Source: an uncultured Gemmatimonadaceae bacterium
Lineage (GTDB): Bacteria; Gemmatimonadota; Gemmatimonadetes; Gemmatimonadales; Gemmatimonadaceae
DNA length: 64,000 bases
Assembly: GCA_963829055.1 (NCBI GenBank)
Contig: CAWHHI010000020.1
Span: forward strand, 448,001-512,000
Direction of reading: 5' to 3'
Of the stretch, positions 1-60,383 are shown in pieces (position 1 is the first letter of the stretch; the number at the start of each line of letters is the position of its first letter). A program made the position numbers and the translations under genes. A model generated the notes under the pieces. That model had not been told where the DNA came from, ran no database searches, and worked only from the letters and a program-made list of their open reading frames with translations.

Positions 1-3000
1 CCCTTGATGTAGCCGGGTTGGAGCACGCCCTTGGTCGAACGGCGGATCGAACAATTGAATCAGCCTGTCATCCGTGCGGACCAGCCGTTGCTGAACCGCA
101 TCCATCGCCGACTGAGCTCGCGCGGGATTTCCCGCACCGGAGATGACCGCCCACGTCTGGGGGAGTGCGTCGATCTGGCACTCATCGTTCTGCGCCGAGC
201 CTAACGGCGTGCCGTCATCGAAGTACGCGCGCCGATACCAGGCGCCATCCCAGGCGCTCGCCTCCACCGCCTGCCGCAGCTGCTCGGCGCCCTCACGGCA
301 CCAATCGGCATCCGCGGCCTGGCCGCGCTGCTGCGCCAGTTCCGCAAAGGTCGTCAGCACGCTCACGAAGAACCAGCCGTTCCAGACGCTCTCACCCTTT
401 CCCTCGGCGCCCACCTTGTTCATGCCATCGTTCCAATCGCCGGTCCCCATGAGCGGCAAGCCGTGCGGGCCAAGGCGATAGCCGTGCTTCAATGCGCGGA
501 GGCAGTGCTCGTAGACGGTGGCGGTCTGAGAGCTCACCGCCGGCAGGTTGAAGTCTTCCTCCTGATCCGGGCGAAGCACCGGTGCGGTGATGAACGGCAC
601 GACCTCGATTCAGGAGCGAGGCATCGCCCGTCGTCGACCACATAGTGATGCACGACGAACGGCAGGAAATAGAGGTCGTCGGTGATGCGCGTGCGGACGC
701 CGATGCCGGACGGCGGGTGCCACCAGTGCTGGACATCGCCCTCCTCGAACTGCCGCGTTGCGGCGCGCAGAATCTGCGCACGAGCCTCTTCAGGGGCGCT
801 GTACACCAGCGCCATGACATCCTGTAACTGGTCCCGGAACCCGTACGCTCCGCCGGATTGGTAGAACGCGGAGCGCGCCCACACGCGGCACCCGAGCACC
901 TGGTACACGAGCCAACGGTTGAGCATCAGGTCGACGGCGGGATCGGGCGTGGTCACCTGCAACGCAGTCAGGTAGCGGTCCCAGTGCTCGCGTACCTGCG
1001 TCAGTAGCCGCGCCGGCGCTGTGGGATGGTGTGTATTCGCCGATGAGTCGGCGGACCTCGTCCAGGTCGTTCGCCTGTCCCAGGGCGAAGACGACGTCTC
1101 GTCGTCTCGCCGGGATACAGCGTCAGCTCCGTCGTGATGGCGGCGCAGGGATCGAGACCAGGGCCGGCACGGTCCGACAGCCTAACGCGTCCCAGACCGG
1201 CGGGCGCCGAGATCGAGCCGTACCGCCCGAGGAACTCCAGACGATCGGCAGTGACGGAGTGCACCGGGCTACCGCAGGCCGCGAAGGCGATCTTCCCGGA
1301 GAAGTCGCCGGCCCAGGCATTGCGCGCCAGGATCGCGCAGCTGTCGGGGTCGCGCTCGCAGACGACCTGCAACGCGGCGTTCTCGCGCGCGGTTCCGAGG
1401 ACCCACTCGGCGTAGTAGGTGACGGAGAGGTGCCGCGGCCGATCGCCCTCGTTCCGAACCGTTAGGCGGACCAGCTTGACGGGATCGTCCGGTGGAACGA
1501 AGACGAGAAGGTCCTGATCGAGATCGTGGCTCACATGCGACCACCGCGTGTAACCCTGGCCATGCCGGATAGTCACGGTTCCCATGGGCCCCAGCGGTAA
1601 GGGCGTGGGGGTCCAGAGCTCTCCGGTCTCCACGTCGCGCAGGTAGACCACTTCGCTTGGCGGATCCGACGTCGGATCGTTCGACCAGGGCGTGAGCCGG
1701 TTCATCTGACTGTTCCCCGCCCACGTGTAGCCCAGGCCAGCTTCCGTCACCAGACATCCGAACTGTGGATTGGCAAGCACGTTGGTCCACGGGGCCGGCG
1801 GCAGCGTCGTGGCGACCGGTGATGTGCGGTCGATGGCGATCACGTACTCGCGGCCATCGTGCGTGAACCCGCCGAGGCCGTTCCAGAAGAGCAACCCGTT
1901 AGGCGGGACGGTCCGCCGCGCCACCCGCTTTGCCGCGAGCCCCTTCGGAGCGAGCGGCGCCAGCTCGGGCGATCGGATAGCTGTCGCGCTGCGATCTGCT
2001 CGATGAGCGACCCGCGGCCGCCGCCAAGCACGGCGCGCGCCGCGGCCGCGAGCAGCACGGCATCGTCGGCCGGCAGCTGCCGCGCAGCCAGCACGAACAC
2101 CCCGCCCGGCTTGCCGAGCATGTCGCCGGCAGCGCCCGTCTCCAGCTCCTGTCTGCAATCGCGCCGCCGGTTCGTCGGCGCGCTCGTCCAGAATCACGAG
2201 ATCGAACGTCAATCGCCGGCGCACGATGTAGCTGCGCCACCTGACGAGTTGGCGAACGACCGCCTCGTCATCGTCCTGTGTGACTCGAGCCAGCACGATC
2301 GGCAGGTCGCCGGAGATCGCGTGCGGCCAGAGACTTCGCTGTCCAAGGCGGTTGGCAGCCACTGCATCCGCGGTCGCGAAGAGCAGCGCTCGTGAACACG
2401 AGCGACGCCGCCAGGCGGTTGAATGGCGCGATCTCGTCCGCGCTGAGCTCGAGCTCCCGCAGCTCCTGTTCGGCAGCGGGCGTGAGCACCGGCGAAGGCC
2501 GCGTCTATCGCGTCGAGATCGCGGAATCGTTCGGCCAATCCCATGGCGGCTTCACGCGTGTCGGCCGCTCCGGTCATGAACGCAACGCGCGCCGTCATTC
2601 CCGCGTCGAGCGCAATGCGGCGGCGCAGGCTGAAGATCGGATCGAGCACCGGGCCGGTGGTTCGCGACAGGCGCGATCCCGCATCCATCGCGGCGGGATT
2701 CGCCGGCGTGCGGCCGCGGCCGAGGAATCTCACTCGGTCGGTTTCGTAGGCGATCTCGTCGGCGACCGGCGCAGCGCTCACGTCACTCACGTCGCTCGTT
2801 GAAACGTGAATCGCCCAGACCGGGTGCTCCTTCGCGCCGCGCGGCCGACGTCGCGCCAGGAGCGCACCGGACTGCGCATCGAATTCCGTCTCCAGAAACA
2901 GCTTTGCGAACGCCGGGTGGGCCTGGTCGGCGCGGCGTGCGTTGAGACACACCTCCGCGTAGCTCGTCAGCTCGAGGTCTCGGCGGCGCTGGCCGTGATT

Positions 3001-3399
3001 GACCAGCGTCACGACGCGAAGTTCGGCATCCGCATCCGGCACGACGCACACGGCACAGCGAGTCTCGACGTCGCCATCGCGTCGACGAAACTCGGCGCGG
3101 TCGATGCGAAGGTCGACGTCGGGTGCGTCGCCCGCTCGCACCAGCGGCTGCGTGCCGATCGACCAGCAGCGGTCGTCGCCGAGGTCGCGGACGTAGTAGA
3201 ACTGGCCCCAGCAATCGCGCGTGGCATCCTCGCGCCAGCGGGTCACATCGAGGTCACGCCAGGCGCTGGAGCCAGTACCGGCGCTCGTGATCATCACGCT
3301 GTACGAGCCGTTGGACAGCAGTGCTATTGCGGGTGCGATCGCATTGTGCGAGGGTCGGATGCTGGATGGCCCTTCTCGTCGAGCTCGTGCGTGTGTCAT
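1..3399 (-). CDS. GH94 glycoside phosphorylase resembling the C-terminal phosphorylase half of cyclic beta-1,2-glucan synthase (NdvB/Cgs); frameshifted; 3' end lies beyond the window
   Basis: Consecutive frames carry LLSNGSYSVMIT..TRWRED, HPAFAKLFLETE, ISGDLPIVL, NGLGGF..GREY, PAPWTNVLANPQFG, NRLTPWSNDP, RSAFYQSGGAYGFRDQLQD, QHWWHP and GLPLMGTGDWNDGMN, typical of NdvB/GH94. Confidence 0.85.
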
Positions 3400-3449
3400 T
3401 CCGGGCGAGGCATTCGCTCAGCACTAGTACGGACCTCCATCCTCCACCG

Positions 3450-3464
3450 CCATGAGCCCTTCGG
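3450..3464 (-). promoter_or_regulatory. Degenerate regulon box CCGAAGGGCTCATGG upstream of the GH94 gene
   Basis: Partial consensus match, co-directional with the gene, 20 nt before TACTAG. Confidence 0.4.
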
Positions 3465-3567
3465 CGCGGCCGCGACGCTCGCCGCGCGCCTAACGAGCTC
3501 GACCGGTCGAATCCCTAGGCCCGCTCGTCGCCACGAACGTCCGCCCTCTGCCAGCGGCCTGGGAGAC

Positions 3568-3582
3568 TCGAAGGGCCAATTG
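3568..3582 (+). promoter_or_regulatory. Regulon box TCGAAGGGCCAATTG upstream of SulP
   Basis: The 17-mer CGAAGGGCCAATTGTCC at 3569-3585 is identical to 8288-8304. Confidence 0.6.
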
Positions 3583-3651
3583 TCCAGGCCACGCACAGCC
3601 ACAGCGAACGTGTGAGGGCTCCGATCGAACCACGCATGCAATTGCGCCAAC

Positions 3652-5335
3652 GTGAGTAGATCCGCGCGCCTCCCGATCCTGGACTGGGCCGTCGGGTACC
3701 GGAAGGAATGGCTCCGGCTCGACGTGGTTGCCGGTCTCACCGCCGCGGCGGTCGTCATCCCCAAGGCGCTGGCGTACGCCACGATCGCGGGGCTGCCGGT
3801 GCAGGTGGGGCTCTACACCGCGCTCTTCCCGATGGTGATTTACGCGCTGCTCGGGACTTCGCGCCCGCTCAGCGTGAGCACCACGACGACCCTCGCCATC
3901 CTGGTCGCGGCGAATCTGGCGCGGGTCGCACCCAGACGGTGACGCTCGCCGCTCCTGATCAGACGCGACGGCGACGCTGACGCTGCTCGTGGGCGTCATC
4001 CTCGTTGGTGCTTCCGTTCTGCGGCTGGGATTCGTCGCCGATTTCATCTCCGAGCCCGTGCTCATCGGGTTCAAGGCGGGAATCGGGCTGGTCATCGTGC
4101 TCGACCAGATTCCCAAGCTGCTCGGCGTCCACTTCGACAAAGGCGGGTTTTTCCACAACGTCGTCGAGACCATTCGAGCGATCCCGCATGCCTCGCTGCC
4201 GACGGTCGCGGTGGGAGTCGGCACGATCGTGTTGCTGGTGGGTGCTGCATCGAGTGCTCCCTCGGGCGCCTGCCCCGTTGATCGCGGTCGCCGCGGGGAT
4301 CGCGGCAGTGAGCCTGTTCGGGCTGCGAGCGCTATGGTGTTGCGACGGTCGGCGAGATCCCGCGTGGTCTGCCGTCGTTCATCGCACCGGACTTCTCTCT
4401 TGTCGCCGTGCTCTGGCCCGGGGCCCTTGGCTGCGCGCTCATGAGCTTCACGGAAACGATCGCCGCCGGCCGCGCCTTCGCCGCCAGCCGCCGAACCGCC
4501 GCTCGTGCCTAACAGGGAGCTGGTGGCGACGGGACTCGCGAATGTCGGGAGCGCGGTCTTCGGGAAGCATGCCGGCCGGCGGCGGTACGTCTCAGACCGC
4601 GGTGAACCGATCGGCTGGGGCGCGAACGCAGCTGGCCGAGCTGGTCACCGCTGGTGCCACGTTGCTCACGATGCTGCTGCTTGCCGGACCAATGGGGCTG
4701 ATGCCGCAGGCGACGCTCGCGGCGGTGGTGATCGTGTACTCGATGGGGCTGATCGAGCTGGCCGGCTTTCGCGCCATCCTCGCGATCCGTCGCCTGGAGT
4801 TCATCTGGGCGCTGGTCGCTCTGGCCGGCGTCGTCGTGCTCGGGACGTTGCAGGGTATCGTGGTCGCGATCGTGGTGTCGGTGGTGTCGCTCGCCCAGCA
4901 GGTCGCCAACCCGCCGGTCTACGTGTTGGGCCGCAAGCCAGGCACCAACGTGTTCCGGCCGCGTTCGGCCGAGCACCCGGAAGACGAGAGCTTCCCGGGG
5001 CTGCTGCTGCTCCGAGTGGAAGGACGCGTGTTCTTCCTCAACGCCGCACGGATCGGCGAGAAGATCCGCTCGCTCGTGACCCGAGATGAAGCCGAACGTC
5101 GTGGCGATCGATCTGAGCGGCGTGTTCGATTTCGAGTACACGGCGCTCAAGGCGCTGATCGAAGCGCAGAAGCGGCTCGCGAGGCGATGGCATATCGGTC
5201 TGGCTGGTCGGCCTAACGCCGGCCGTGCTGCGCGTCATCGAGCGCTCGTCACTCGGCGAGCGGCTCGGGCGGGAGCAGATGCACTTCAACCTGGAGATCG
5301 CGGTGCGGAAATATCTGCGCGCCACGCCCGAGTGA
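3652..5335 (+). CDS. SulP family inorganic anion transporter with C-terminal STAS domain (frameshifted)
   Basis: DVVAGLTAAAVVIPKALAYATIAGLP..GLY, FISEPVLIGFKAG, GGTSQTAVN..GARTQ, then STAS segment LRVEGRVFFLNA and VVAIDLSGV. Confidence 0.9.
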
Positions 5336-6037: not shown

Positions 6038-6182
6038 GATCGGACGCGGACGGCGACGTACCGGGCCTAACGATCGACGTAGATCGACGGAGTGGATCTC
6101 GCACGGACAGCGTCGGCCTCGCGTCTGCCAACCCTCCCTGCGCTACGACCGCCACCGCTTGGCCGGCTGAACGGCGGCGCGC

Positions 6183-8489: not shown

Positions 8490-11400
8490 ATGGCTGACTT
8501 CTTCATTCGGCGGCCGATCGTCGCGATCGTCATCGCCATCGTCATCACGCTGCTTGGTCTCGCCGTTCTGCAGCGCCTTTCCATCGAGCAGTATCCCGAG
8601 CTGGCGCCACCGAACATTCGGGTGGAAACCACCTACCAGGGTGCCTCCGCCGAGGTGGTGGAGCAGTCGGTCGCCACGCCGATCGAGCAGCAGGTGAACG
8701 GCGTGGACAACATGATCTACATGAAGTCGCTCAACACGAGCGACGGGCGCATGCTGCTCGACATCTCGTTTCAGGTCGGCATGGATCGCGACATGGCGAA
8801 CGTGCTCGCGCAGAATCGCGTGTCGCAGGCCCAGTCCCGGCTGCCGCAGGAAGTGATGCAGCAGGGAGTCACGGTCAAGAAGCTCAACCCCAGCATCCTG
8901 ATGGTGGTCTCGCTCTACTCGCCGAAGGGGAGTCGAGACGCGCAGTTCCTCAATAACTACGCGATGATCAACATGCGGGATGCGCTCCTCCGCGTGCCCG
9001 GGATCGCGCAGGTGGATCTCTACGGCGGCGCCGAATACGGCATGCGCGTCTGGCTCCGTCCCGATCGCCTAACGCGGCTCGGCCTGACGCCAGCGGATGT
9101 CATCGACGCCATCAAGGAGCAGAACCTCCAGGCGCCCGCAGGACAGGTCGGTGCCGCTCCCTCGCCGCCAGGGCAGGAGTTCACCTACACCGTGAAGGCA
9201 CCGGGCCGCCTCGTCACCGCCGAGGAGTTCGACAACATCATCATTCGCCAGACCGCGGGCGGCGGAGAGCTCCGACTCAAGGACGTCGGGCGGGCCGAGC
9301 TTGGAAGCGAGAATTACCGCTCGTTCGGACGCGCGATCGTGAAGGACTCGACCGGCAAGTGGACGGGCGGCGCCGCGGCGTCGCTCCTCGTGTACCTCCT
9401 GCCCGGCGCCAACCAGCTCGCCTCGGCCGAGGGGGTTTACCACTCGCTCGAGGAGTTCGCGACGTTTTTCCCGACCGACGTGGCGTACAAGATCGTGTAC
9501 GACACCACGCCCTCGGTCGAGGCGAGCATCCACGAGATCCTCAAGACGCTCGTCGAGGCATTCATTCTCGTGAGCCTCGTGGTGTTCGTGTTCCTGCAGA
9601 GCTTCCGCGCCACGATCATCCCGCTCCTCACCGTGCCGGTGGCGCTCGTGGGCACGTTCATCTTCTTCCCGCTGCTCGGCTTCTCGATCAACACGCTCAC
9701 GATGTTCGGCCTCGTGCTGGCGATCGGCATCGTGGTGGATGACGCGATCGTGGTCGTGGAAGCGGTGATGCACCACATCGAGCACGGGAAAACACCCAGG
9801 GACGCGACGGTCCAGGCCATGAAAGAGGTGTCCGGGCCGGTGATCGCGATCGCCCTCATTCTCTCGGCGGTGTTCGTGCCGGTGGCGCTGCTTGGCGGCC
9901 TGACGGGCCGGGTGTACCAGCAGTTCGCGCTGACCATCGCCATCTCGGTGCTCCTGTCCGCGTTCCTGGCGCTGAGTCTCGCGCCGGCGCTCGCCGCGAT
10001 GATGCTCAAGCCCGCCAAGCAGACCGGTGGCCTGCTGGGCAAGTTCTATCGCGGGTTCAACAAGATGTTCGATGTGACGACGACCAAGTACGTGAGCTGG
10101 ACGCGCTTGTTCGTCAGGCGAGCGATCCTGGTGGTGGTGGTCCTGGTCGTGGCCACCGGCGTGACGGGTCGTTCTTGGCAGTTCGCTTCCGAAAGGGTTC
10201 GTGCCCGACGAAGACCTGGGCGTCTTCATGATCAACGCCCAGCTGCCGCCCGCGTCATCGAGCGAGCGGACCGACGGCGTCGTCCGGCAGATCGAAGAGG
10301 TGCTGAAGAAGACCGATGGTGTGGTCGCCTGCACCGGCATCGGCGGATCGGGAATCCTCACGAACTCGTTCAGCCCGGAGTTCGCCTCGTTCTTCTGCAG
10401 GCTCGAGGACTGGGACGAGCGGAAGACACCGGCGCTGCACGTCAGCGGGATTACGCAGACGCTGAGACGCTCGCTCGCGGGGATTCCAGGCGCCGTGATC
10501 TTCCCGTTCACTCCACCGACGATCCCGGGGTTCGGCGCGGCCGGTGGCTTCAACTTCCTCCTGCAGGACCGAAGCGGGACGATGAGCGTGCAGGATCTCG
10601 GGAAGCAGACACAGGTCTTCCTGGACGCCGCGCGCAAGCGACCCGAGCTCGCCAACCTGTTCACGTCGTTCAACGCGCAGGTCCCGCAGGTTCAGGTCGA
10701 GCTCGACCGGGAGAAGGCACGCACGTTAGGCGTGCCGATCAACGACGTGTTCGCCGCGCTGTCCGCCGCGATGGGTGGCGCGTACGTGAACGACTTCAAC
10801 CGGTTTGGGCGGCTCTATCGCGTGTACGTGCAGGCAGAGCCCGCGTTCCGTCAGAAGCCCGTGACATCGGGCAGTTCTACGTGCGGAGTCGGACGACGAA
10901 CGAGATGGTGCCGCTCTCCACGCTGATGACGATCACGCCCGGCTCGGGTACGGAGATCACCACCCGGTTCAACCTGTTCCGGTCGGTCGAGATCACCGGG
11001 GTGCAAGCGCCGGGCTACACGTCGGGTCAGGCCATGACGGCGCTCGAGGAGACGGCGACGCAGGTGCTCCCGCGCGAGATGGGGTACGCGTACTCGGGTT
11101 TCTCGTACCAGGAGAAACAGGCGCCGCCAGCGGGACCGACGTTCGTGCTGGCGATCGTCTTCGTCTTCCTGCTGCTCGCGGCGCAGTACGAGAGCTGGAA
11201 GCTCCCGTGGGCGGTGCTGCTGGAGACGCCGCTCGTCGCGTTAGGCGCGTTCTTTGGCGTGTGGGTCGCGGGCTACGACAACAACGTGTTCGTGCAGGTG
11301 GGCCTGATCATGCTGGTGGGGCTCGCCGCCAAGAACGCCATCCTCATCGTGGAGTTCGCAAAGATGCGGCACGAGGCCGGTGCGTCGGTGGAAGAGGCCG

Positions 11401-11716: not shown

Positions 11717-13112
11717 GTGCACCTAACGACGTCGCGGCGTCGGCGCGGCGCTCCTGCTGACCGTGGTCACGGCGTGCCGCATGGGGCCGAACTACGAGCG
11801 CCCGGAAACCACGCCGGTGCCGACGGCATGGCGGGACAGCGCGCAGGCCGGGCACGACTCGTCGTTCGCGAACGTTCCGTGGTGGGGCGTGTTCAACGAC
11901 GACACGCTGCAGACGCTGATCCGACGCGCGCTCAAGGAAAACCGCGACGTTCACATCGCGCTCGCCCGCGTGAACGAAGCGCGCGCACTGCTCGGGATAC
12001 AACGGCTGGAGTACTACCCGCAGATCAACGTGCAGGCCGGCTTGCGCAAGTCCGACGGTGCCGATTCCCTGCTCACCGGCGTCACCAACAGCGAGATGGC
12101 GTGGCTCGGCGGCGGACTGTCCTGGGAGCTCGATCTGTGGGGACGGTTGCGACGCTTGAACGAAGCGGCGGCCGCCGAGCTTCTGGCGACCGAGGAAGGA
12201 CGCCGCAGCATGATCCTCACCGTGGTGAGCGACGTCGCGCGCGCCTACATGGAGGTGATCGAGCTCGATGACCAGGTGGCCCTCACCGACACGCAGGTGG
12301 TCATCCGGCGCGCATCGCTCGCGCTGGCTCGTGGACGGTTCCAGGGCGGGCTGACGTCCGAGATGGATGTCCGCCAGGGGGAGCTCGCGCTGGCCGTAGC
12401 GGAAGGCAGTCACACCCGGGCGCTCCGACAGCGGGCGCAGAAGGAGAACGAGATCAGCGTGCTGTTGGGCCGCACGCCCGGCGGGGTCCCGCGCGGGTTG
12501 CGGTTGTCCCAGCAGGGCATCCCCACGGCGATCCCGGCCGGCCTGCCGTCGAACCTGCTCACGCGCCGCCCGGACGTTAGGCAGGCGGAGGAGCAGCTGC
12601 GCGCGGCGAACGCCAGGATCGGCGCCGCGAAGGCCGCAATGTTCCCCACGATCGCACTCACGGCGACCGGCGGGACCATCAGCGATGAGCTCGGGTCGCT
12701 GTTCAAGGCGGCACCGGATTCTGGCGCCTCGCACCCAGCCTGTTTCAGCCGATCATCAACACCAGCCGAAACCGCAAGCAGATCGCGGCCGAGCGCGCGC
12801 GCACCGAGGCGGCGGTGGGTCAGTACGAGAAGACGGTGCTGACGGCGTTTCGGGAGGTGGAAGACCAGTTGGTCGCCGTGCAGCGGTTGCGCGAGGAAGC
12901 CGACGCCGCGGGGCGTGCCTCGACGGCGGCGCGACAGGGCGTACGCCTGGCCGGGACTCCGCTATGAAGGCGGCGTTGACAACTACCTGACACTGCTGGA
13001 CGCCCAGCGGGCACAGCTCGACGCCGACCTGCAGTCGTCCGGACTGGAGCGACAGTACCGCGTGGCCGTCGTGCAGCTGTACAAGGCGTTAGGCGGTGGG
13101 TGGGACCCGTGA
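11717..13112 (+). CDS. RND outer-membrane factor lipoprotein, NodT/OprM family (frameshifted)
   Basis: Lipobox VVTAC-RMGPNYERP, WWGVFND..L, SWELDLWG, LLTRRPDVRQAE, LYKALGGGW. Confidence 0.92.
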
Positions 13113-13184
13113 CCGACACGCTGGCACTGCCCAACCGCGGCCACGACCGGCACGGCTGTCAGCACCTAACGTCACGGTCGGTCG

Positions 13185-15624: not shown

Positions 15625-15744
15625 CGCACCCGTCCGATGGGGGAGGGTACGGCGTCTCCCCTCACTGCCTAACGCCGGTGATGACTGCGTGGGGTGCCTG
15701 ACGCACCGTATGCCGGCTCGTTGCCTACCCTCACGGAGTTACCG

Positions 15745-20246: not shown

Positions 20247-20304
20247 GACTCGTGCGGCCGCGGTGGCCTGCCTAACGTCAGCCAATGCCGCGGCCAGACC
20301 ATGA

Positions 20305-44381: not shown

Positions 44382-44450
44382 CGGTCCTCCCTGCTCCGTG
44401 GTTTTTGGAGCGTTAGGCGATACTATGGTACACGCCCATGGCAATATCAG

Positions 44451-45310: not shown

Positions 45311-45555
45311 GATTGGGCCTAACGAGAATGGTCGATCATGGGACGTCGCCGAGCAGGTGGGTGCGGCGGGTGGAGAGGAGGAACACCTGTTCGTCGGGAC
45401 TCTGTCCCTGGAACACCGGATCGACCGGCCGCCTGGACATCGTTAGGCGCCTGCCGGGCGTACGGCGGCTCTCCGGTCTCAGCGGCCCATCCGGGCGCGA
45501 GACGATTTCATCCCACATGCGGCCGAGAAGGCCAATCATGGAAATACACCTGCAC

Positions 45556-46290: not shown

Positions 46291-46428
46291 GGTAGTCCTC
46301 CATCTCGAATACGTTAGGTATCGTCTCGGATCAGCGCGCATGGGGAGCGAAAGCCGAGGTCGAGTCCAGTCCGGGACCGGTCCCGGACGTGGAGTGCGTT
46401 GGATGATTGTCGACTGCCAGCCGCGCGG

Positions 46429-46559: not shown

Positions 46560-46766
46560 TCAGCGTCTGTCTCCCGACGCGTCGGACGCCGGGTCCCGGG
46601 CGGGCAGCCGCACGCCACCGGTCGATGCGTGGTCGAGCCGGAGACGCTCGACGCACGAATCCGACAGTGCACACACCGCTAGCGCCACCACGAAGACCGC
46701 GCGGACCAGCAACGCCTCTCTCGTTAGGCGATAGCCGTGGAAGTCGCGGGACAGGTGTGTGCGCAT
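46560..46766 (-). CDS. Putative 68-aa single-pass membrane protein
   Basis: GAGGTGG RBS 7 nt before ATG, own box and -10 upstream, hydrophobic ALLVRAVFVVALAVCAL, paralogous relic with synonymous changes. Confidence 0.6.
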   Translation of the reverse strand: MRTHLSRDFHGYRLTREALLVRAVFVVALAVCALSDSCVERLRLDHASTGGVRLPARDPASDASGDRR

Positions 46767-46893: not shown

Positions 46894-46944
46894 GCAATCC
46901 ACGGGATGCCCACGATGGTCGGCGAGGCGCGTTAGGTGAGTTGG

Positions 46945-48082: not shown

Positions 48083-49034
48083 TCAACCTCCGCCGACCGT
48101 CGGTCGTGCCGGCCGGCGAATCCTCGTGGTCTGCCATCCGACAGTCCACGTGGTGAAGTTGGACCCCGCTCGCGTGATAGCGCCCCTCGACCACGCAAGC
48201 CTCAGCGCGTTGCTCCGCGTTACCGGCAACGACGCCGTGAGTCCGACACGCGTGTTCTCCTGGCGCTCCGGTGCCGGCACGTCGTCGACCGCTGACCGTC
48301 CACCCGAGTAGAACGTGGCATTGGCCGAGACCCAGAGCCGCGGCCCGAACAGGTACCCGACGTGCGACTGCAGCGATAGCAATGGGTCCTGCGTCTTCTT
48401 CTGGTCGCCGAGGAAGGACGAATTGGGCGTAAAAAACCACGCACCCCCGAAGAGCTCGAGCGTCCACGGACCAACGGGTCGAGAGAAGCCAACCTCTGGC
48501 TTGAATGCCCACCGGTTCGTTCCGACGTTTACGAGCTTGTCGGACGAAGTACTGGCCAGTCGGCATGGCGATCGTCACGCTCGTACCGACATACGTCGAC
48601 GGCTTGTGACGCACGAACTCCCCCAGTGACATCGCTCGGCCGCCTAACAAGCCCACGGCAAACCGCAAGCGAGCGTCGGCGAGTCCCGAGCGGTCCACGC
48701 GTGCCGCAACTTCCTGGACGTTGCCCGTGATCTTGGCCCACGCGTACGGCACCCCGACCGACACGTTCGCCGTTCGACCGGCAAGCGCGAACGTCCCGCC
48801 TACGCCGATCGCCGTGGTATATACCGTTGCGCGAACATCACTCAAGGGACTCGTCGCGTCGAACGCGATGCCGCCCGTGGTGTAACCTAACGACACGCCG
48901 CTGAACAATACGCCGAGCGGGGTTGCGGCGTACGCGCGTGGCTCGATCTCCTGCGGGCGAGCGGTATCGACACTCGCCGCCATCAGCGCGGCCATCGCCC
49001 AGGCGCCGGGCGAAATCCGGCGTAGCGCGATCAC
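48083..49034 (-). CDS. Outer-membrane transporter, SphA / phenol MetA-pathway-like (frameshifted)
   Basis: QEIEPRAY, GLADARLRFAV.L.G, PTGQY..KLVNVGTNRWAFKPEVG, TTWTVGWQ. Confidence 0.8.
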
Positions 49035-50380: not shown

Positions 50381-52336
50381 CTACTGGGGCCTAGGTCCTA
50401 TACCGCTCGGTTCGGCATTCTCTGGAGGCTCACCGAACGCGTGGTCCGAGCGTGCGGCCGCTCGGCGGATCAGCTCCATCACGTGCACGACGACGCTGCT
50501 CGATTCACCCTGGCGGGTCAGCATCTCGATCCCCCAGGTCAGGTCGAGTCCACGGACCCGCACGGCGGCCAGGCCGGCCGGTGGCAATCGCAGGTGCGTA
50601 CGAAATCCAAGACACCACCCTTCACCGCGTCGCGCCACGGACCACATCGTCTGAAGTCCCTGGTACTCGCGCTCGATCCGAGGGTAAAACTCCTGCGCTG
50701 CGAACAGCAGCATCGTTCGGTCGTAGAACGCCGGATACACCCAACGCGGCACGAAGAGAAACGGAAACTCACCGAGGTCGGCCAACGCGATCTCGTCGCG
50801 CATGGCGAGGCGATGCTCGGGCGGCAGCAGCACGCAGCAGATCGGGTCATCGATCAGCTGGTGGCGCTCGAGTTGCGCCAGGAACGGCGTCACGGATGTG
50901 AACGCGTAGCAGAGCCCCACGTCGGCCTCTCCAGACACGAGCGCGTTAGGCTGGTCTGTCGTCGGCATCTCGACGAATCGCACGTGCGCGTCCGGCAGCT
51001 CGCTGGCAGCAGCACGTACGAGTGCGCCGACCAGGTGCCCGGTGACGAACGCCGGAATGACGGCCACGATACAGTGACCTGTCGCGCCGCGCGTGGCGCG
51101 ATGTGCGTCGGCCGCGACGCCGGTAACGCGATCGAGTATGCGTTGAGCGTCTGCCGCGAAGGTCTCACCAGCCGCGGTTGGTACCACGCCCGTCGGCTGA
51201 CGCTCGAGCAGCTGCACGCCGAACATGCGTTCGAGATCGTGCATCTGCCGCGAGAGCGTTGGTTGCGTGATCGCGAGCCGTCGCGCGGCTCGCCCAACGC
51301 TCCGTTCCTCGACGACCGCCAGAAAGTAGCGAAGGTGCCGGAGCTCCAGGGCCCGCAGCGCCGTCATGTCGGATGCCAGCTCGTACGGTTGGCCCTGTTG
51401 GCCTGCCGGGATGACGGATCGGATTGCGCCCGGCGATGCGGTGTGGGCGGGCTCGCGCGCGATCGTGAGCAGTGCGTCGCGCACGGTACGGACAACCCCC
51501 GGCAGCCGGCCACGCTTGGAGATAACGTGCATCGCGATCGGCGCAGCGAGGTCCTCAACGGGAACCACCACGTTCTCCGGCGGAACCCACGCGGCGAGCG
51601 CACGGATGAACGGCGTCCACGCCTTACCGGCGGCGATCACCGCGAATGCGTCGGCAACGCCCTCCGTCGTCTGGATCGGCGCAGGCGGGGTGACGCGTGC
51701 GGCAATCTGTTCGCACACGCGGCGGTGATCACCCTCGAGACCCACCGGGCTGACGATCGTTTCGGTCGCCAGCTCGGACAGTCGAATGCTCGCGCGGCCT
51801 GCCAGCGGATGCCTGCTGGCCAGTACGGCGGCGTCGCAGTAGTTGACGACGAGGACTCGAGACTCGAGGTCCGTGAACTCGCGCGACGCTTCGACTCCGA
51901 TGCCGAGATCGGCTTCGCCGGACCGGATCGCGAGCCACTGTGTCGGCCCCGTTCCTTCGATGACGCCAAGCTCCACCATCGGGCAATCACGGGCGACCGC
52001 CGACATGAGACCCGCGATCAAACCATTCCACGTCGGCACCAGGCCCGCGCAAATGGAGCATTGGCCCGCCAGCCCGCGACTCGCCGATCGCGTGCGCTCG
52101 AGCGCCTGGGTGATCTCCTCCGTGATGGCGCGAGCCGTGACCGCGACGGACTCACCGGCGGGTGTAAGACGGAACGATCGCCGGTCGCGCACGATCAGCC
52201 GTTCGTTCAGCTCACGTTCGAGATCCTGGATCTGACGCGACAGAGCTGGCTGCGCCAGTCGAAGACGCTCGGCGGCGCGCACGAACCCGCCCTCGTCGGC
52301 GACTGCGAGGAAGTACCTGAGGTGGCGCAAGTCCAC
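50381..52336 (-). CDS. Tandem double LysR-type regulator (HTH-SBD-HTH-SBD, 651 aa)
   Basis: VDLRHLRYFLAV..AAERLRLAQPALSRQI and, in the same frame, LELRHLRYFLAV..AARRLAITQPTLSRQM, each followed by a substrate-binding domain. Confidence 0.9.
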   Translation of the reverse strand: MDLRHLRYFLAVADEGGFVRAAERLRLAQPALSRQIQDLERELNERLIVRDRRSFRLTPAGESVAVTARAITEEITQALERTRSASRGLAGQCSICAGLVPTWNGLIAGLMSAVARDCPMVELGVIEGTGPTQWLAIRSGEADLGIGVEASREFTDLESRVLVVNYCDAAVLASRHPLAGRASIRLSELATETIVSPVGLEGDHRRVCEQIAARVTPPAPIQTTEGVADAFAVIAAGKAWTPFIRALAAWVPPENVVVPVEDLAAPIAMHVISKRGRLPGVVRTVRDALLTIAREPAHTASPGAIRSVIPAGQQGQPYELASDMTALRALELRHLRYFLAVVEERSVGRAARRLAITQPTLSRQMHDLERMFGVQLLERQPTGVVPTAAGETFAADAQRILDRVTGVAADAHRATRGATGHCIVAVIPAFVTGHLVGALVRAAASELPDAHVRFVEMPTTDQPNALVSGEADVGLCYAFTSVTPFLAQLERHQLIDDPICCVLLPPEHRLAMRDEIALADLGEFPFLFVPRWVYPAFYDRTMLLFAAQEFYPRIEREYQGLQTMWSVARRGEGWCLGFRTHLRLPPAGLAAVRVRGLDLTWGIEMLTRQGESSSVVVHVMELIRRAAARSDHAFGEPPENAEPSGIGPRPQ

Positions 52337-52502: not shown

Positions 52503-54030
52503 ATGTGCGCGATGGCGCACAGGATGCGCGCCGTGAACTTCGTCGAAGGGCAACAACTGAACTGTGGCGTGCTCGACATTCTCGTCGAGCACATCGCGAA
52601 GACTGTAGCGGATTCTGCTGTATTCATTACGGCAGAGGTGCCCGAAACGGGCGTCCGGATTCTCGCTGAATTCCCCCCGGCGGCGGCGACCGGTGCGCCC
52701 AACGCTCAGGCGCACGAGCGCCGTACGACTGGGGACAGCGAAGGCCTGCGGATGGATGAGCCGGCCGTAGCAGCCCCCGTTCAGTTCGGCGACGCGGTCA
52801 TCGGTTGGGCCGTCATGGTCGGTCCGACGCTCGCGGAGGACAAGAAGGCCGAGGGGCTGATCACACTGCTGGCCAGGTGTGCGAGCGTTCTCCTCGCCCT
52901 TCCGCGACGCGATGAGAGCGTCGAGCGCGCCAAGCGTCGCTGGGAGGATGCCGCGCGCGACGGATACTGGGAGTGGGATCTCGCGAGCGGTGCGATGCGG
53001 TTCTCTCGCCAGAGCTTGTCGCTCCTCGACTACCGGGATCGGGATCGTCCGAACCGGGCGGCGGTGTGGCTCGATCGCGTTCACCCCGATGATCGCCTAA
53101 CGCTGATCGCCTCGCTGCTCACAGCAGCGACCGACGACGACACGCCGGTCGACGTGGAGCATCGGATCGTGCGGAAGGACGGCTCGGTTGGATGGCTTGC
53201 AGTACGGGCGTTCCTCGAGCGTGATGGAAGTGGCCGTCCGATGCGGTTGATCGGGTGGCTATCGGATGTGAGTCGTGCGCGGCACGTCGAGTCGGAACTG
53301 CGGAACGCGCAGTTGTTGGCCGATGTGGGTCGCGTCGCGGCGGGCACCGCGCACGACTTCAACAACTATCTCACAATCATTCGTGGACATGCGGACCTCG
53401 CGATGCGGTCGGTCGACCCGGCGAGCAACGCCCGGGAGAGTCTGGAATTGATCAAGCACGCAGCCACGGGCGCGACGACGTTGACGCAGGCAACTGCTCT
53501 CGTTGCGTCGCAGTCAGGCCCCAGTGCAATCGCTGGTAGACCTGAACGTCGTCGTCGCGGCTGCCGAGCGGACGCTTCGTTCGCTCGCGGGAAGCACGAC
53601 GCGCGTGAACCTGAAGCTTGCATCTGACCTCTCGGCCGTGCGCGTCGAGGCGGGCCACGTGGAGCGTCTGCTCATCAATCTCGTCGTCAACGCTCGCGAC
53701 GCGATGCCAGGCGGCGGCGTGGTGACCATCGAGACGGCGGATGCGTCGTACGACACGTTAGGCCCCGACACGCGACCCCTGTTGCTCCCGGTGGCCGACT
53801 ACGTCCTCCTGACGGTGAGCGACACGGGTACGGGGATGTGCCATGCGACGCGCGCGCGCATCTTCGAGCCGTTCTTCACTACCAAACCTGGCAGGCAGGG
53901 CACCGGGCTGGGGTTGTGGATCGCTCGGGACATAATGCAGCGCTGCGGGGGCGGCATTGACGTCCGCAGCACCCCCGGGAATGGGACGACGTTCACCATG
54001 TACTTTCCTCGTGCGGAGCCGCTTGGCTGA
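52503..54030 (+). CDS. Cytoplasmic PAS sensor histidine kinase (frameshift near 53490)
   Basis: DGYWEWDL..RVHPDD PAS/PAC, AHDFNN H-box, NLVVNARDAM, DTGTGM..FEPFFTTK..GTGLGL; no receiver domain. Confidence 0.9.
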
Positions 54031-55740: not shown

Positions 55741-55885
55741 ACCTAACGCGGCCGGCGTGCATCGCCTGTCCCGAAGGTCCCCTCGCGGCGGAATCACGGC
55801 GGGCATACAGTGAGCAATCGTGTGGCCCGGCGAGTCATCGTCCGGGTGGCGTGCTGGCCCGCGAGTACCGCCATCCCGTTCAGCG

Positions 55886-59044: not shown

Positions 59045-59059
59045 CCATTGGACCTTCGG
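59045..59059 (-). promoter_or_regulatory. Regulon box CCGAAGGTCCAATGG (exact consensus) upstream of the sensor kinase
   Basis: 20 nt before GAGGAT. Confidence 0.7.
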
Positions 59060-59096
59060 CACGGGGGTCCCCCGTGCTCGTTACTTCGAGTTCGAC

Positions 59097-59855
59097 CTAC
59101 TTCGCGGAATAGCCCTTCCCGTCCAGACAGGTGGTGAAGCCGTCAGCGAACTTCTTCTTGCTCTGATCGGCTGCCGCCGCCGCTTGCGCCTGCGCGTCGT
59201 TCGCGGCGGCCTGATTGTTCGCCTTCTGGTTTCGGCGGCCGGCCACTCCACCCGCGGCGGCGCCGATCGCGGCCCCCTTGCCAGCGTCGCCGGCGATCGC
59301 ACCGATCGCCACGCCAGCCACGGCCCCTTTCGCCGCGCCCTTGGCTGCCCCGCCCTGCGCAGGGGGCGGCGCGGTTGCTGCACCCACCGGTGCGTACGGG
59401 TCGATTCCCGTGTTCGTCTTCGCCCACACGAAGCACTCGTTCTCGTCGAAGTGCTGCTGCTCGATCGGCTGTCCGTTCTTCGGGTACACGACGACGCCAA
59501 TCGCCGACCCGGACGCCTTGGGATCGAACGGAGGATAGGTCTTCGGGGGCGGCGGCGGGGGCGCACTCGCCGGTTCCGCGGCGGCGGGCTTGGCCGCTGC
59601 CGGCTTCGCAGCTGCTGCCTTCGTAGCTGCCGGCTGCGCTGCCTCGGGGCTTGCGACGGTCCCGGCGGAGACCATGGTCGCCGTGTCGCCTGCCGGCACC
59701 GTGGTCGCCGCTGGTGCGGCCGTGTCAGTGAGCGTGGCGCCGGCGGACGCGTCCGATCTCCCCTTGCACGCGGACAGCGATAGAGCCGTAAGCGCGAACG
59801 TGCACGTTACGACGACGATGTGCGCCGCACGGGGCGCGAATGGTCGGGTGCTCAT
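59097..59855 (-). CDS. Glycine-zipper lipoprotein with Ala/Pro-rich linker, copy 2
   Basis: LSAC lipobox, (AAAKP)n linker, YPKNGQ..CFVWA, same zipper and CLDGKGYSAK end as 54049-54600. Confidence 0.85.
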   Translation of the reverse strand: MSTRPFAPRAAHIVVVTCTFALTALSLSACKGRSDASAGATLTDTAAPAATTVPAGDTATMVSAGTVASPEAAQPAATKAAAAKPAAAKPAAAEPASAPPPPPPKTYPPFDPKASGSAIGVVVYPKNGQPIEQQHFDENECFVWAKTNTGIDPYAPVGAATAPPPAQGGAAKGAAKGAVAGVAIGAIAGDAGKGAAIGAAAGGVAGRRNQKANNQAAANDAQAQAAAAADQSKKKFADGFTTCLDGKGYSAK

Positions 59856-59929
59856 GTTCCCCTTCCCTGGTGACGGAACGCCGGCCGAGGGCCAGCCATC
59901 ATCAGCCTAGGAGGGCGCACGCGCGAGGG

Positions 59930-59944
59930 ACATTGGCCGTTGGT
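59930..59944 (-). promoter_or_regulatory. Regulon box ACCAACGGCCAATGT
   Basis: Consensus-like, 20 nt before TAGGCT. Confidence 0.55.
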
Positions 59945-60383
59945 GACACACCGGCCGGCAATGTCCGCCGCAGCATCGGTTCAGTCCGACGCTGCGCCAG
60001 CGCCAACTCCGGTCGGCTCAGTACGTGAGATGGCGCGCGAACCCGAAGGCGCGCAGACATCGACGACGCGGGAGCTGGGGAACGATCAGATACTCGCGAT
60101 GCGTTCCGCTTCGTCGAGCGGTCGAGCGACGGCGTACGCCAGGCGCGGCATTCGACGTTAGGCAGGCCTCTGGGCCGCCGTGTCACGCCGCCTCGCGGTG
60201 TCGCGGGGCGTTAGGCATGGAATTCTGCCTGGAATCCCACGCAATCGCCGCGATCATCGCTGCGAGGCCGTATGTTGCACTCCGGCGCGAACGGTGTACA
60301 ATTGCGTCGGTCCAGATGGTGCTGAGCTCGGTACGCACCGCGACCGTCCATTGTCGGCCGGAGAGCGATACCCCTGTGACAGT

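Follow-up and report, generated by a model that had tools for sequence, protein, structure and literature searches.

Why does one short word recur about once per kilobase, within genes as well as between them, in the 64,000-nt stretch of DNA analyzed here (the window), which belongs to a metagenome-assembled genome (MAG) of a soil bacterium of the Gemmatimonadaceae? An exact recount of CCTAAC/GTTAGG yielded 64 sites (33 on the plus and 31 on the minus strand; Table 1), as claimed by an earlier, sequence-only reading, versus a mean of 7.61 (sd 2.7, maximum 18) in 100 dinucleotide shuffles. In accordance with that reading, CCTAAC is preceded by a purine in 64 of 64 sites (54 G, 10 A) and directly followed by G in 59; the resulting 8-mers are GCCTAACG (49), ACCTAACG (10), GCCTAACA (4), and GCCTAACC (1). 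Most CTAA/TTAG tetramers were indeed located within the word, both in the window (64 of 74) and genome-wide (7103 of 8933).

Throughout the genome, CCTAAC occurs 7103 times, CCTAACG 6391 times, and GCCTAACG, the top over-represented 8-mer, 5004 times, compared to 131, 102, and 258 copies expected for the latter under Markov models of order 1, 2, and 3. Inside ORFs, 3202 copies of GCCTAACG stand against 147.8 ± 14.4 (maximum 182) in 20 within-gene synonymous-codon shuffles. Its hyper-abundance is thus confirmed under Markov and codon-aware nulls alike. Of 201 family genomes, 64 show enrichment of GCCTAACG, with a patchy distribution and graded strength; densities of 0.05 to 1.34 per kb suit a balance between drive and mutation. 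As a cultured isolate, Gemmatirosa kalamazoonensis, shows enrichment of the word in its finished genome as well (36 per 50 kb), the artefact considered in the earlier reading is dismissed. The top 8-mer is identical in five f1 genera, one f2 genus, and the isolate (63-75% GC), and no dialects were seen among them, unlike the DUS of Neisseriaceae, which varies between genera. In 280 kb of the word-poor genome G047, no substitute word was found.

The word is a double-stranded, orientation-free 8-bp word, found on every replicon at ~0.2-1.3 copies per kb. Genome-wide, GCCTAACG lies 2457 times on the plus and 2547 times on the minus strand; neither strand polarity, replichore bias nor conserved flanks were found at its sites. 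These are solitary. The number of gaps below 100 bp is 0.19-0.34 times the Poisson prediction, those of 400-1500 bp are overrepresented, and short gaps were depleted in seven of seven samples (six genomes and the isolate). Two word deserts of 37-48 kb consist of DNA of foreign character. Inverted pairs (+- or -+) less than 30 bp apart number only seven, whereas terminator-acting inverted pairs are typical of the Neisseria DUS. The geometry is otherwise DUS-like, with near-equal strands and a mean gap of 1201 bp, compared to a mean DUS distance of ~1,150 nt given in PMC2397512.

Genic sites are distributed over the four stop-free frames (1568, 1165, 776, and 503), with 22 in the stop frames, and the most used frame requires the rarest codon, TTA, 68% of whose occurrences fall in the word. 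The rare-codon examples given previously hold (CTA at 9067; TTA at 11239, 13087, 14377, and 18299; GTT-AGG at 12575). Among stop codons, 301 of 834 TAA (36%) and 233 of 1741 TAG lie within the word, whose density is also raised about twofold over the 50 bp that follow stops. Of the [APST]-L-G contexts, 26% bear the word, as do 64% of those of the type x-P-N-[ADEGV]; CCT-AAC encodes 39% of Pro-Asn dipeptides, and Pro-Asn shows an observed/expected ratio of 1.39. A comparable proteome imprint of the USS is described in PMC2817400, according to which, however, USS reading frames correlate with preferred codons, whereas the commonest frame of GCCTAACG uses the rarest one.

Table 1. Sites of the word in the window; genic and intergenic status follows the ORF calls of this analysis.
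Word	Position	Strand	Context
GCCTAACG	199..206	+	intergenic
GCCTAACG	1180..1187	+	antisense in ORF 1004-1924(-), GTT-AGG (Val-Arg)
GCCTAACG	1460..1467	-	sense in ORF 1004-1924(-), CTA Leu codon
GCCTAACG	1897..1904	-	sense in ORF 1004-1924(-), CCT-AAC (Pro-Asn)
GCCTAACG	3488..3495	+	intergenic
GCCTAACA variant	4507..4514	+	intergenic
GCCTAACG	5211..5218	+	TAA = stop of ORF 4569-5213(+)
GCCTAACG	6065..6072	+	intergenic
GCCTAACG	9067..9074	+	CTA Leu codon, AcrB-like ORF 8490-11723(+)
GCCTAACG	10724..10731	-	GTT-AGG, AcrB-like ORF 8490-11723(+)
GCCTAACG	11239..11246	-	NCG-TTA-GGC (Leu TTA), AcrB-like ORF 8490-11723(+)
ACCTAACG	11721..11728	+	TAA = stop of AcrB-like ORF 8490-11723(+)
GCCTAACG	12575..12582	-	GTT-AGG, OEP ORF 11763-12839(+)
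GCCTAACG	13087..13094	-	TTA codon, ORF 12915-13109(+)
ACCTAACG	13164..13171	+	intergenic
GCCTAACG	14377..14384	-	TTA codon, ORF 13494-14525(+)
GCCTAACG	15667..15674	+	intergenic
GCCTAACG	16621..16628	+	CCT-AAC, ORF 16322-17104(+)
GCCTAACG	17133..17140	+	intergenic
GCCTAACG	18299..18306	-	TTA codon, ORF 18028-18864(+)
GCCTAACG	19319..19326	-	intergenic
GCCTAACG	20270..20277	+	intergenic
GCCTAACG	21213..21220	-	intergenic
GCCTAACA	22020..22027	-	CCT-AAC, ORF 21688-22602(-)
GCCTAACG	22576..22583	+	TTA codon, ORF 21688-22602(-)
ACCTAACG	22767..22774	+	GTT-AGG, ORF 22684-23112(-)
GCCTAACG	23981..23988	-	intergenic
GCCTAACG	24626..24633	+	TTA codon, symporter ORF 24086-25513(-); identical word at G005 orthologous place
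GCCTAACG	24938..24945	-	CTA codon, symporter ORF 24086-25513(-); one-letter variant in G005
ACCTAACG	25515..25522	-	intergenic; tandem pair with 25525..25532, 10 bp apart
ACCTAACG	25525..25532	-	intergenic; tandem pair with 25515..25522
GCCTAACG	26333..26340	+	TTA codon, fumarase ORF 25535-26947(-); conserved in G005
GCCTAACG	27333..27340	+	intergenic
GCCTAACG	27388..27395	+	intergenic
GCCTAACG	28354..28361	+	TTA codon, DUF1254/DUF1214 ORF 27433-29028(-)
ACCTAACG	28596..28603	-	CCT-AAC, DUF1254/DUF1214 ORF 27433-29028(-)
GCCTAACG	30205..30212	+	TTA codon, MscS-like ORF 29038-30387(-)
GCCTAACG	30689..30696	+	intergenic
GCCTAACG	31310..31317	-	CTA codon, ORF 30728-31927(-)
GCCTAACG	31992..31999	-	intergenic
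GCCTAACG	32253..32260	-	intergenic
GCCTAACC	33394..33401	+	intergenic; tandem with 33403..33410, 9 bp apart; GTTGGG in paralogous copy near 46940
GCCTAACG	33403..33410	+	intergenic; tandem with 33394..33401; present in both paralogous copies
GCCTAACG	33634..33641	+	intergenic
GCCTAACG	35122..35129	-	intergenic
GCCTAACG	36140..36147	+	intergenic
GCCTAACG	37170..37177	-	GTT-AGG, ORF 36358-37851(+)
GCCTAACA	37849..37856	+	TAA = stop of ORF 36358-37851(+)
GCCTAACG	39770..39777	-	TTA codon, DUF2950 ORF 39757-40674(+)
GCCTAACG	41863..41870	+	GTT-AGG, ORF 40718-42409(-)
GCCTAACG	44411..44418	-	intergenic
GCCTAACG	45317..45324	+	intergenic; left arm, 132-nt inverted pair (fold z -3.2)
GCCTAACG	45441..45448	-	intergenic; right arm, 132-nt inverted pair with 45317..45324
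ACCTAACG	46312..46319	-	intergenic
GCCTAACG	46722..46729	-	intergenic
ACCTAACG	46930..46937	-	intergenic; within duplicated upstream region
GCCTAACA	48642..48649	+	intergenic
ACCTAACG	48885..48892	+	intergenic
GCCTAACG	50944..50951	-	CCT-AAC, LysR-type ORF 50384-52336(-)
GCCTAACG	53095..53102	+	CTA codon, ORF 52503-53624(+)
GCCTAACG	53756..53763	-	TTA codon, ORF 53524-54027(+)
ACCTAACG	55741..55748	+	intergenic
GCCTAACG	60156..60163	-	intergenic
GCCTAACG	60209..60216	-	intergenic

Paralogous and orthologous comparisons revealed both turnover and retention of sites. The duplicated promoter that had been taken to indicate turnover by point mutation is real: the two copies of this upstream region (33255-33480 on the minus and 46850-47115 on the plus strand) align at 73% identity, and GTTAGG in one is GTTGGG in the other, which supports the claim. 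At orthologous places in genome G005, 14 of 28 sites are kept, compared to 21.6% for background 8-mers (p 8.5e-4); in four genomes pooled, whose pairs are not independent, 25 of 53 sites are kept against 11.5 expected. This positional conservation may partly be convergence, as only a small number of peptide contexts are permissive, and these are 8-64% saturated. Site density in the window is similar with and without a G005 ortholog (28 in 32.1 kb and 31 in 31.9 kb), giving no sign of a core-genome bias in a comparison that is weakened by MAG fragmentation. The rpoB/C genes of the word-rich G066 carry 12 sites in 6.35 kb, at which CCGAG is found on the word's strand in the word-poor genomes G098 (9 of 12) and G124 (5 of 7 covered); this is consistent with a CTC Leu codon, from which TTA is reached by two synonymous changes. 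In the rpoB loci of 22 word-rich genomes, 76 sites were counted versus 65.9 expected at genome density.

The sequence-only reading had also proposed an asymmetric methyltransferase target, which is disfavored: G. kalamazoonensis bears the word, yet its published SMRT methylome contains only RGATCY, ATGCAC, and CCAGN7TCA, and in the richest genera no C5 methyltransferase (PF00145) was detected in G000, four other g1 genomes, or five g9 genomes. Other parts of that interpretation are upheld: the word is a signal at the DNA level throughout the genome, it prevails over codon usage, its sites turn over by point mutation, and as a phenomenon it is similar to HIP1 and DNA uptake sequences. Its reader may be a DNA-uptake or a nucleoid protein. 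The word equals the integron core/inverse-core site (RYYYAAC/GTTRRRY), a match that had gone unremarked, yet integrase presence does not track the word. A one-position repair bias is rejected, since the word (131) and any single neighbor are together expected at most ~1300 times under order-1 Markov (GCCGAACG, 1173), or ~220-250 times with a transition neighbor via cytosine deamination (GCTTAACG, 88; GTCTAACG, 123), against 5004 seen.

At ~1 copy per kb, even in essential genes, GCCTAACG closely resembles the tags by which Neisseria and Haemophilus recognize their own DNA. ComEC and PilM were each identified in 184 of 201 family genomes; uptake hardware is found in G000 and almost all word-rich genomes, and the three genera without a ComEC match (g25, g51, and g70) are all word-poor. 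However, both proteins are equally present in word-poor genomes and, occurring in nearly the whole family, do not discriminate between the two groups; no reader protein for the word was found among these candidates. To our knowledge, no member of the Gemmatimonadota is known to be naturally transformable, and a literature search returned no paper combining “Gemmatimonad” with “DNA uptake sequence.”

With somewhat less than even confidence, we regard RCCTAACG (mostly GCCTAACG) as a DUS/USS-like, lineage-specific self-tag of many Gemmatimonadaceae. The maintaining force would act on the entire word rather than on single bases, and its strength would suffice to replace the preferred Leu codon CTC by the rarest one, TTA, in essential genes, to recruit stop codons into the word, and to alter how often dipeptides occur. 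The mechanism would most likely be the one known for the DUS of Neisseriaceae and the USS of Pasteurellaceae. The word presumably has a reader, probably a protein of a DNA-uptake or recombination route, and this protein would prefer word-bearing DNA. Word-bearing alleles would therefore be preferentially taken up or recombined among kin, a molecular drive to which selection may add, and one word per recombining fragment would be enough, which would give even spacing. Under this proposal, the word-bearing bacteria would be transformable.

The hexamer CCTAAC/GTTAGG occurs 64 times in the window (33 sites on the plus and 31 on the minus strand), against 7.6 ± 2.7 sites, and at most 18, in 100 dinucleotide-preserving shuffles of the same DNA. 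A purine directly precedes all 64 sites and a G follows in 59, the octamers being GCCTAACG (49), ACCTAACG (10), GCCTAACA (4) and GCCTAACC (1), and 64 of the 74 CTAA/TTAG tetramers of the window lie inside this word, RCCTAACG. The assembly to which the window belongs (G000; 7.78-Mb, 20 contigs, 66.5% GC), and in which it spans positions 448001-512000 of contig C20, carries 7103 copies of CCTAAC, 6391 of CCTAACG and 5004 of GCCTAACG, which ranks as its top 8-mer under Markov nulls of order 1, order 2 and order 3 (131, 102 and 258 copies expected, respectively). A synonymous-codon shuffle preserving each protein and each gene’s own codons yielded 147.8 ± 14.4 copies of GCCTAACG in the ORF calls, compared with 3202 observed. 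The enrichment is therefore real, and the codon and dinucleotide composition that the sequence-only reading had named as the possible undoing of its claim does not account for it under any of these nulls. Also enriched genome-wide are GCATAACG (583 copies, 4.4x) and CCTAACAA (240 copies, 13.5x), which may be tolerated variants or separate signals. A second set of overlapping over-represented 8-mers (CTCGGAAT, TCGGAATG, TCATTCCG and GGATGACA, 660-1065 copies) indicates a further, abundant REP/MITE-like repeat that has no relation to the word.

The relation of the word to genes was assessed with our own, crude ORF calls (codon log-odds, 6734 ORFs, 73% of bases); owing to these calls and to assembly frameshifts, intergenic shares and stop-codon counts are approximate. 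By this measure, intergenic positions hold 30% of CCTAACG sites and ORF edges a further 7%. Inside ORFs the word is read as NCG-TTA-GGY (1568 sites), CCT-AAC-G (1165), C-CTA-ACG (776) or C-GTT-AGG (503), and the two frames that contain a stop account for only 22 sites. The comparison of TTA and CTA use inside and outside the motif, suggested by the sequence-only reading, places 68% of TTA and 21% of CTA codons within the word, together with 16% of CCT and 9% of AGG; the individual codon examples given there proved correct on re-checking. Stop codons within the word comprise 301 of 834 TAA and 233 of 1741 TAG, and word density rises to about 7x the baseline at the stop codon and about 2x over the next 50 bp. 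Among peptide contexts from which the word can be reached synonymously, it is present in 64% of x-P-N-[ADEGV], 26% of [APST]-L-G, 17% of [CDGHNRSY]-L-T and 8% of x-V-R-x. Pro-Asn dipeptides are encoded by CCT-AAC in 39% of cases and show an observed/expected ratio of 1.39. Nor does the word avoid essential, highly expressed genes: the rpoB loci of 22 word-rich genomes hold 76 sites compared with 65.9 expected from genome density. In the rpoB/C genes of one such genome (G066), 12 sites are found in 6.35 kb, and at these positions CCGAG stands on the word’s strand in 9 of 12 cases in the word-poor genome G098 and in 5 of 7 covered cases in the word-poor genome G124. With the frame inferred from the pattern, CCGAG would fit CTC, the preferred codon for Leu, from which TTA is reached in two synonymous steps; TTG-type intermediates (GCCCAACG and GGTTGGGC) are present in the rpoB/C genes of relatives.

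The logo of the genomic sites consists of G (.79) or A (.12), CCTAAC and G (.90), with weak preferences for C or T, not G, at position -2 and against G at position +7. Outside positions -2 to +9 the flanks contain 0.00-0.05 bits per position, so that the word does not belong to a REP or MITE. Individual sites stand alone, with a mean nearest-neighbour gap of 1201 bp. Relative to Poisson numbers, gaps are depleted below 20 bp (0.19), at 20-50 bp (0.29), at 50-100 bp (0.34) and at 100-200 bp (0.55), and those of 400-1500 bp are in excess; the depletion of short gaps was seen in 7/7 samples (G000, four other genera of the family, one genus of the sister family and a plasmid of the cultured isolate Gemmatirosa kalamazoonensis KBS708). 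Density is even across contigs and likewise on a megaplasmid. GCCTAACG is balanced between strands in G000 (2457 plus, 2547 minus), CCTAACG sites within ORFs are balanced between sense (1961) and antisense (2073), adjacent sites share their orientation in 51.7% of cases, and the strands are represented by 526 plus and 570 minus sites in windows with GC skew above 0.01 and by 839 plus and 814 minus sites in windows with skew below -0.01. These strand and skew counts exclude a bias of the Chi or KOPS type, and the replichore polarity raised for testing by the sequence-only reading is absent from them. The duplicated upstream region it had described (see table) was recovered, with GTTAGG in one copy and GTTGGG in the other.

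The window’s fumarase has its closest relatives, at 78-81% identity, in MAGs labelled Gemmatimonadaceae. In this family, the word exceeds twice its reversed-word control in 64 of 201 genomes (77 genera sampled). Densities in the family span about 0.05-1.34 per kb, with 116 of the 201 genomes at 0.3 of the control or below. All five sampled genomes of the window’s own genus (g1) contain 0.40-0.66 copies per kb, and the richest genus (g9) reaches 1.16-1.34 per kb. In the phylum sample, enrichment outside the family was found only in one genus of a second family (g110, up to 1061 copies), and the 62 genomes of nine further families contain at most 70 copies per genome. Genomes flagged as unpublished (G013, G051, G052 and G150 in the family sample; G013, G255, G282 and G352 in the phylum sample; G013 in the tree) are all word-poor or intermediate, and the conclusions are independent of them. 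The top 8-mer is identical in six sampled word-rich genomes and the isolate, at 63 to 75% GC, and a search of 280 kb of the word-poor genome G047 for a substitute word, or “dialect,” found none. The word is likewise present outside MAG assemblies: bases 100001-150000 of KBS708 plasmid 1 (NZ_CP007129), part of a finished PacBio assembly (PMC3974934), contain 36 copies of GCCTAACG compared with 0.6 expected. L001, a named MAG contig of Gemmatimonadaceae that bears an assembler-style “k255_” name, contains 4 sites within 7.4 kb. Metagenome runs of 15 studies, from soil, rhizosphere and sediment, contain DNA near-identical to window positions 24001-34000; in runs of four studies, contigs match parts of this stretch at 92-100% likeness, and CCTAAC hexamers are untouched among the 40 of 462 differences listed.

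An RpoB tree was built from the 30 best-scoring loci, which are biased towards kin of G000, and 28 rows were usable (G037 and G177, wrong ORFs on long branches, were ignored). Word-rich genera occupy at least three places in this tree, corresponding to at least three state changes in which gain and loss are indistinguishable. Loss within genus g56 was considered as a case of fast turnover and rejected, since the rpoB/C genes of G124 and G066 are 84% identical, no closer than those of other genera, and fast turnover is thus not shown. Among four congeners of G000, whose aligned parts show 78-81% nucleotide identity, G005 retains the exact 8-mer at 14 of 28 covered sites and the other three at 3 of 6, 4 of 6 and 4 of 13; background 8-mers are retained at 17.5-23.4%. 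The comparison with G005 alone gives p 8.5e-4, and the four pairs, which are non-independent, pool to 25 of 53 sites kept compared with 11.5 expected. Many of the non-conserved sites are one letter off, which fits turnover by point mutation. Convergence may account for some shared positions, because there are few permissive contexts and these are heavily occupied; of the 12 rpoB/C sites of G066, 3-4 are found again in genus g84, which is moderately rich. Two word-free stretches of G000, on contigs C6 and C11 (see table), encode the housekeeping genes ftsK, aroC, DAHP synthase, pepA and folD, second copies of which, only 47-59% identical, are located on contig C16; these stretches are probably chimeric or foreign DNA in the MAG.

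A force maintaining such a word would favour the complete 8-mer over every neighbour and would act on duplex DNA regardless of strand, transcription and replication. It would saturate locally, a second copy within about 200 bp adding little, and would leave copies where their cost is lowest; with one invariant specificity, it would be on in some lineages and off in others. Because these whole-word, strand-blind, saturating and cost-avoiding properties match known biased uptake and recombination of kin DNA, we tentatively favour, with rather less than even confidence, a reading by analogy in which the word may be maintained in the manner of the DUS of Neisseriaceae (GCCGTCTGAA) or the USS of Pasteurellaceae. 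In Neisseria, the receptor of the DUS is a ComP-type minor pilin. Like these tags, the word occurs about once per kb in both orientations, in genes and spacers, and is spaced more evenly than random. Conserved sites in permissive places, absence from foreign DNA and an imprint on peptide frequencies are shared as well with the published features of DUS and USS, which also include a spacing equal to conversion-tract size (PMC2397512, PMC2817400) and a mean DUS distance of about 1,150 nt (PMC2397512). Other points set the word apart from DUS and USS or count against the analogy. The host phylum, Gemmatimonadota, has no known transformation, and no paper on DNA uptake sequences in Gemmatimonads was found in the literature searched. 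The word has no dialects among the sampled genera, is present in about one-third of the sampled family genomes, uses the rarest codon in its commonest frame and coincides with the integron core site. Terminator-type inverted pairs, in contrast to the Neisseria DUS, are nearly absent, with only 7 pairs (+-/-+) less than 30 bp apart in 6371 gaps of G000. No bias towards the core genome is visible within the window, and no protein that reads the word was found. Of the uptake machinery, the channel protein ComEC (PF03772) and the type IV pilus protein PilM (PF11104) were each detected in G000 and in 184 of 201 genomes; being near-universal and present also in word-poor genomes, they are uninformative about who has the word.

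Somewhat unlikely, but next in weight, is that an abundant chromosomal protein binds the word and that the sites are under direct selection. Such a protein might be a nucleoid organiser, a discriminator of self and non-self in silencing or defence, or a factor using the word as a loading site, and its gene should be confined to word-rich lineages. Regular, orientation-free spacing with depleted short gaps would be expected of it, as would the uniform density on contigs and megaplasmid, a specificity constant across genera at 63 to 75% GC, and a density in essential genes equal to the genome average; given its absence from foreign-looking DNA, the word could be a marker of self. However, no candidate protein was identified, and a 25-fold range of density among word-bearing genomes would be unusual for a structural function. 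Sites are placed by cost (at stop codons, in the next 50 bp and in synonymously reachable peptides) instead of by position relative to genes, and the depletion of gaps extends to about 200 bp, far beyond a protein footprint.

A further candidate for the recognising protein is suggested by the letters of the word. RCCTAAC/GTTAGGY, compared as a logo with the published consensus, fits the integron inverse core RYYYAAC and core GTTRRRY exactly, as these are given in PMC3053210, and integrons are described for Gemmatimonadota in PMC8618304. In word-poor genomes of the sister family, co-oriented clusters of the word turned out to be textbook integron cassette arrays (L082-L086; see table), with a cassette spacing of about 400-2500 bp, mostly 500-700 bp, and of about 500-1000 bp in some clusters. 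The attC sites of these arrays are imperfect palindromes of 90-131 nt, with GCCTAACG at the start, GTTAGGC or GTTAGAC at the end and a folding energy of about -30 kcal/mol. In attC-like R'' boxes from five loci of two genomes of this family, G is the next letter in 44 of 44 cases and GCCTAAC is used in 38 of 44. G000 itself has an IntI-like gene beside attC-like sites that start with the word (see table), and integron integrases (TIGR02249, E-value threshold) were detected in 113 of 201 family genomes (114 in a second tally). Cassette ORFs often end in an R'' box, and 8% of G000 ORFs end in the word. It is therefore conceivable that an integron integrase, or some related tyrosine recombinase, recognises the word, with the dispersed sites being solitary core sites (R boxes) that serve as genome-wide landing or capture sites for cassettes or arise as by-products of integrase activity; according to a preprint, integrases are able to insert cassettes at many genomic attG sites (bioRxiv 10.1101/2022.09.11.507474).

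Integrase presence, however, does not track the word: integrases were found in 40 of 64 word-rich and 73 of 137 word-poor genomes (Fisher p 0.23), and at genus level in 17 of 27 (rich) and 29 of 50 (poor). Of the five genomes of g9, the richest genus, just one carries a full integrase, and word-poor genomes use the same attC word. Although the dispersed sites share the letters of the attC R''/R' boxes and of the attI/attG core, and Gemmatimonadales attC sites start with GCCTAACG, they are solitary duplex words with no partner arm, L box or cassette array, and the paired R''-L''...L'-R' palindrome (57-141 bp) that follows a cassette ORF in co-oriented arrays was not found at them. An identity of the dispersed word with attC sites was accordingly rejected, given flank information of about 0, random orientation and at most about 55 hairpin-capable pairs per 7103 sites. 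This last figure derives from an attC-like hairpin scan of G000 with 101 strand-hits (about 55 loci with convergent pairs within 157 nt) and is an upper bound only (<2% of sites), as thresholds were loose and no shuffle control was included. The attC variant GTCTAAC is not enriched (24 copies versus 123 expected). Moreover, as attG sites require only GWT according to the same preprint, known integrase biology would not drive thousands of perfect in-gene sites (bioRxiv 10.1101/2022.09.11.507474). Given the lack of tracking, the scarcity of full integrases in g9 and the missing partner arms, a direct role of the integrase is left with only a slim chance. That the word equals the integron core site, in a family with integrases in over half of the sampled genomes, stands as an unexplained coincidence.

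HIP1 of cyanobacteria (GCGATCGC) is a hyper-abundant, clade-specific 8-mer in genes and spacers whose cause is unresolved and which has been linked to methyltransferases. The word resembles HIP1 in abundance, distribution over genes and spacers, and clade specificity, and is an asymmetric sequence of restriction-site length; an asymmetric DNA methyltransferase or a very-short-patch-type repair system could act on it, its abundance being a by-product of methylation-linked repair or of selection, as proposed for HIP1. A 2014 SMRT analysis of KBS708 would reportedly have missed m5C. HIP1, however, is palindromic and overlaps methyltransferase sites, whereas the word is asymmetric and occurs in genomes with no C5 methyltransferase: PF00145 was not found in G000, four other g1 and five g9 genomes, and the word-rich genomes G057, G066, G166 and G198 are not among the 49 of 201 with matches, whereas the word-poor G124 is. 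A correlation with C5 methyltransferase genes, of the kind that the sequence-only reading proposed to look for, is therefore not seen. The KBS708 methylome, the one published (m5C not covered), comprises only m6A at RGATCY, ATGCAC and CCAGN7TCA (PMC3974934); unlike HIP1, the word is unmethylated there despite its hyper-abundance in this isolate, and the earlier suggestion of an asymmetric methyltransferase target is largely refuted. With regard to repair, order-1 expectations for the word plus any single neighbour amount to at most about 1300 copies, and to about 220-250 for the deamination neighbours; these pools are far below the 5004 observed, so that one-base, VSP-type repair bias cannot yield the abundance. 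The neighbours expected from bottom-strand deamination are themselves enriched (GCCTAACA 10x, ACCTAACG 13x). Among the one-letter variants of GCCTAACG in G000, which include GTCTAACG and GCCTAGCG, no single depleted donor was found, which is weak evidence because order-1 expectations for TAA-containing words are inflated by the motif itself. Overall, methylation or repair as the cause is highly improbable.

There is next to no probability that the word is a polar chromosome signal such as Chi, KOPS or other architecture-imparting sequences, a small mobile repeat (REP/MITE), or an artefact of sequencing or assembly: Chi and KOPS are likewise strongly over-represented 8-mers acting at the DNA level and the G000 assembly does contain frameshifts, but Chi and KOPS are strand-polar with respect to replication and the word is not by its skew-window and neighbour-orientation counts, the extended sequence or structure conserved around the core of REP/MITE repeats is absent, and the basecalling artefact considered by the sequence-only reading is ruled out by persistence of the word in the finished PacBio genome of KBS708, in 64 of 201 family genomes, in L001 and in metagenome contigs. 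Beyond the two leading readings, the remaining probability belongs to the other rivals or to something unforeseen. Many split or truncated genes (see table) suggest indel errors of the assembly, which may explain the 85.86% completeness and low ORF coverage of G000.

Location of features in the window, elsewhere in its genome (G000) and in sister-family genomes (C, contig; L, locus)
Feature	Location	Details
Integron-like locus, G000	C20:200700-209200	at least three attC-like sites (205102, 205717, 207189) starting with the word
IntI-like gene, G000	C20:208041-208958 (outside the window)	265.7 bits, cut-off 265
Cassette arrays (L082-L086)	G021:C95:1-27000; G019:C3:1-9000; G021:C43; G021:C80	up to 27 co-oriented cassettes
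Convergent word pair	window 45317-45448	sole such pair within the window; delimits an imperfect 132-nt palindrome (DNA folding energy -31 kcal/mol, z -3.2 vs shuffles); may be a solo attC-like element or terminator
Duplicated upstream region	window 33255-33480(-) and 46850-47115(+)	73% identity over ~225 columns; carries a word tandem, one copy decayed in the second region
ORFs preceded by the duplicated region	window 32325-33254(-) and 47116-48042(+)	neither with a Pfam match
DUF1254/DUF1214 paralogues	window 27433-29028(-) and 36358-37851(+)	7 kb apart
DUF3300 and DUF2950 neighbours	window 38180-40674	
GH94, split or truncated	window 1004-1924	
Sulfate permease, split or truncated	window 4569-5213	
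MIP, split or truncated	window 20660-21148	
rpoB, split	G000:C19:47991-52509	two frames
Chorismate synthase (aroC), split	G000:C6	two ORFs
Word-free stretch	G000:C6:6855-55038	contig start; 70% GC
Word-free stretch	G000:C11:7378-44055	contig start

To our knowledge, self-tagging for DNA uptake is known in only two bacterial families, and explanations of cyanobacterial HIP1 remain disputed. Here, a tag of comparable strength, enriched 20-50x and present in thousands of copies, is found in a poorly studied, abundant soil phylum, where it introduces the rarest codon into essential genes and provides one-third of TAA stops. In a literature search on the word itself and on Gemmatimonad methylome, integron and uptake-sequence topics, no description of the word in this sense was found. 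The word provides a practical lineage barcode, which also flags the two probably chimeric contig ends in G000. Close relatives range from below the reversed-word control to more than one copy per kb; this contrast, together with a cultured isolate with a finished genome, makes the reader of the word, drive versus selection, and the cost of the tag directly testable. There is a small chance that the word represents a third, independently evolved word for DNA self-recognition or uptake, the first outside Proteobacteria, and identical to the integron core site. If true, every kilobase of kin DNA would carry an R box readable by an integrase, often right at a stop codon, and uptake of kin DNA would be coupled to cassette capture or even to the birth of new cassettes.
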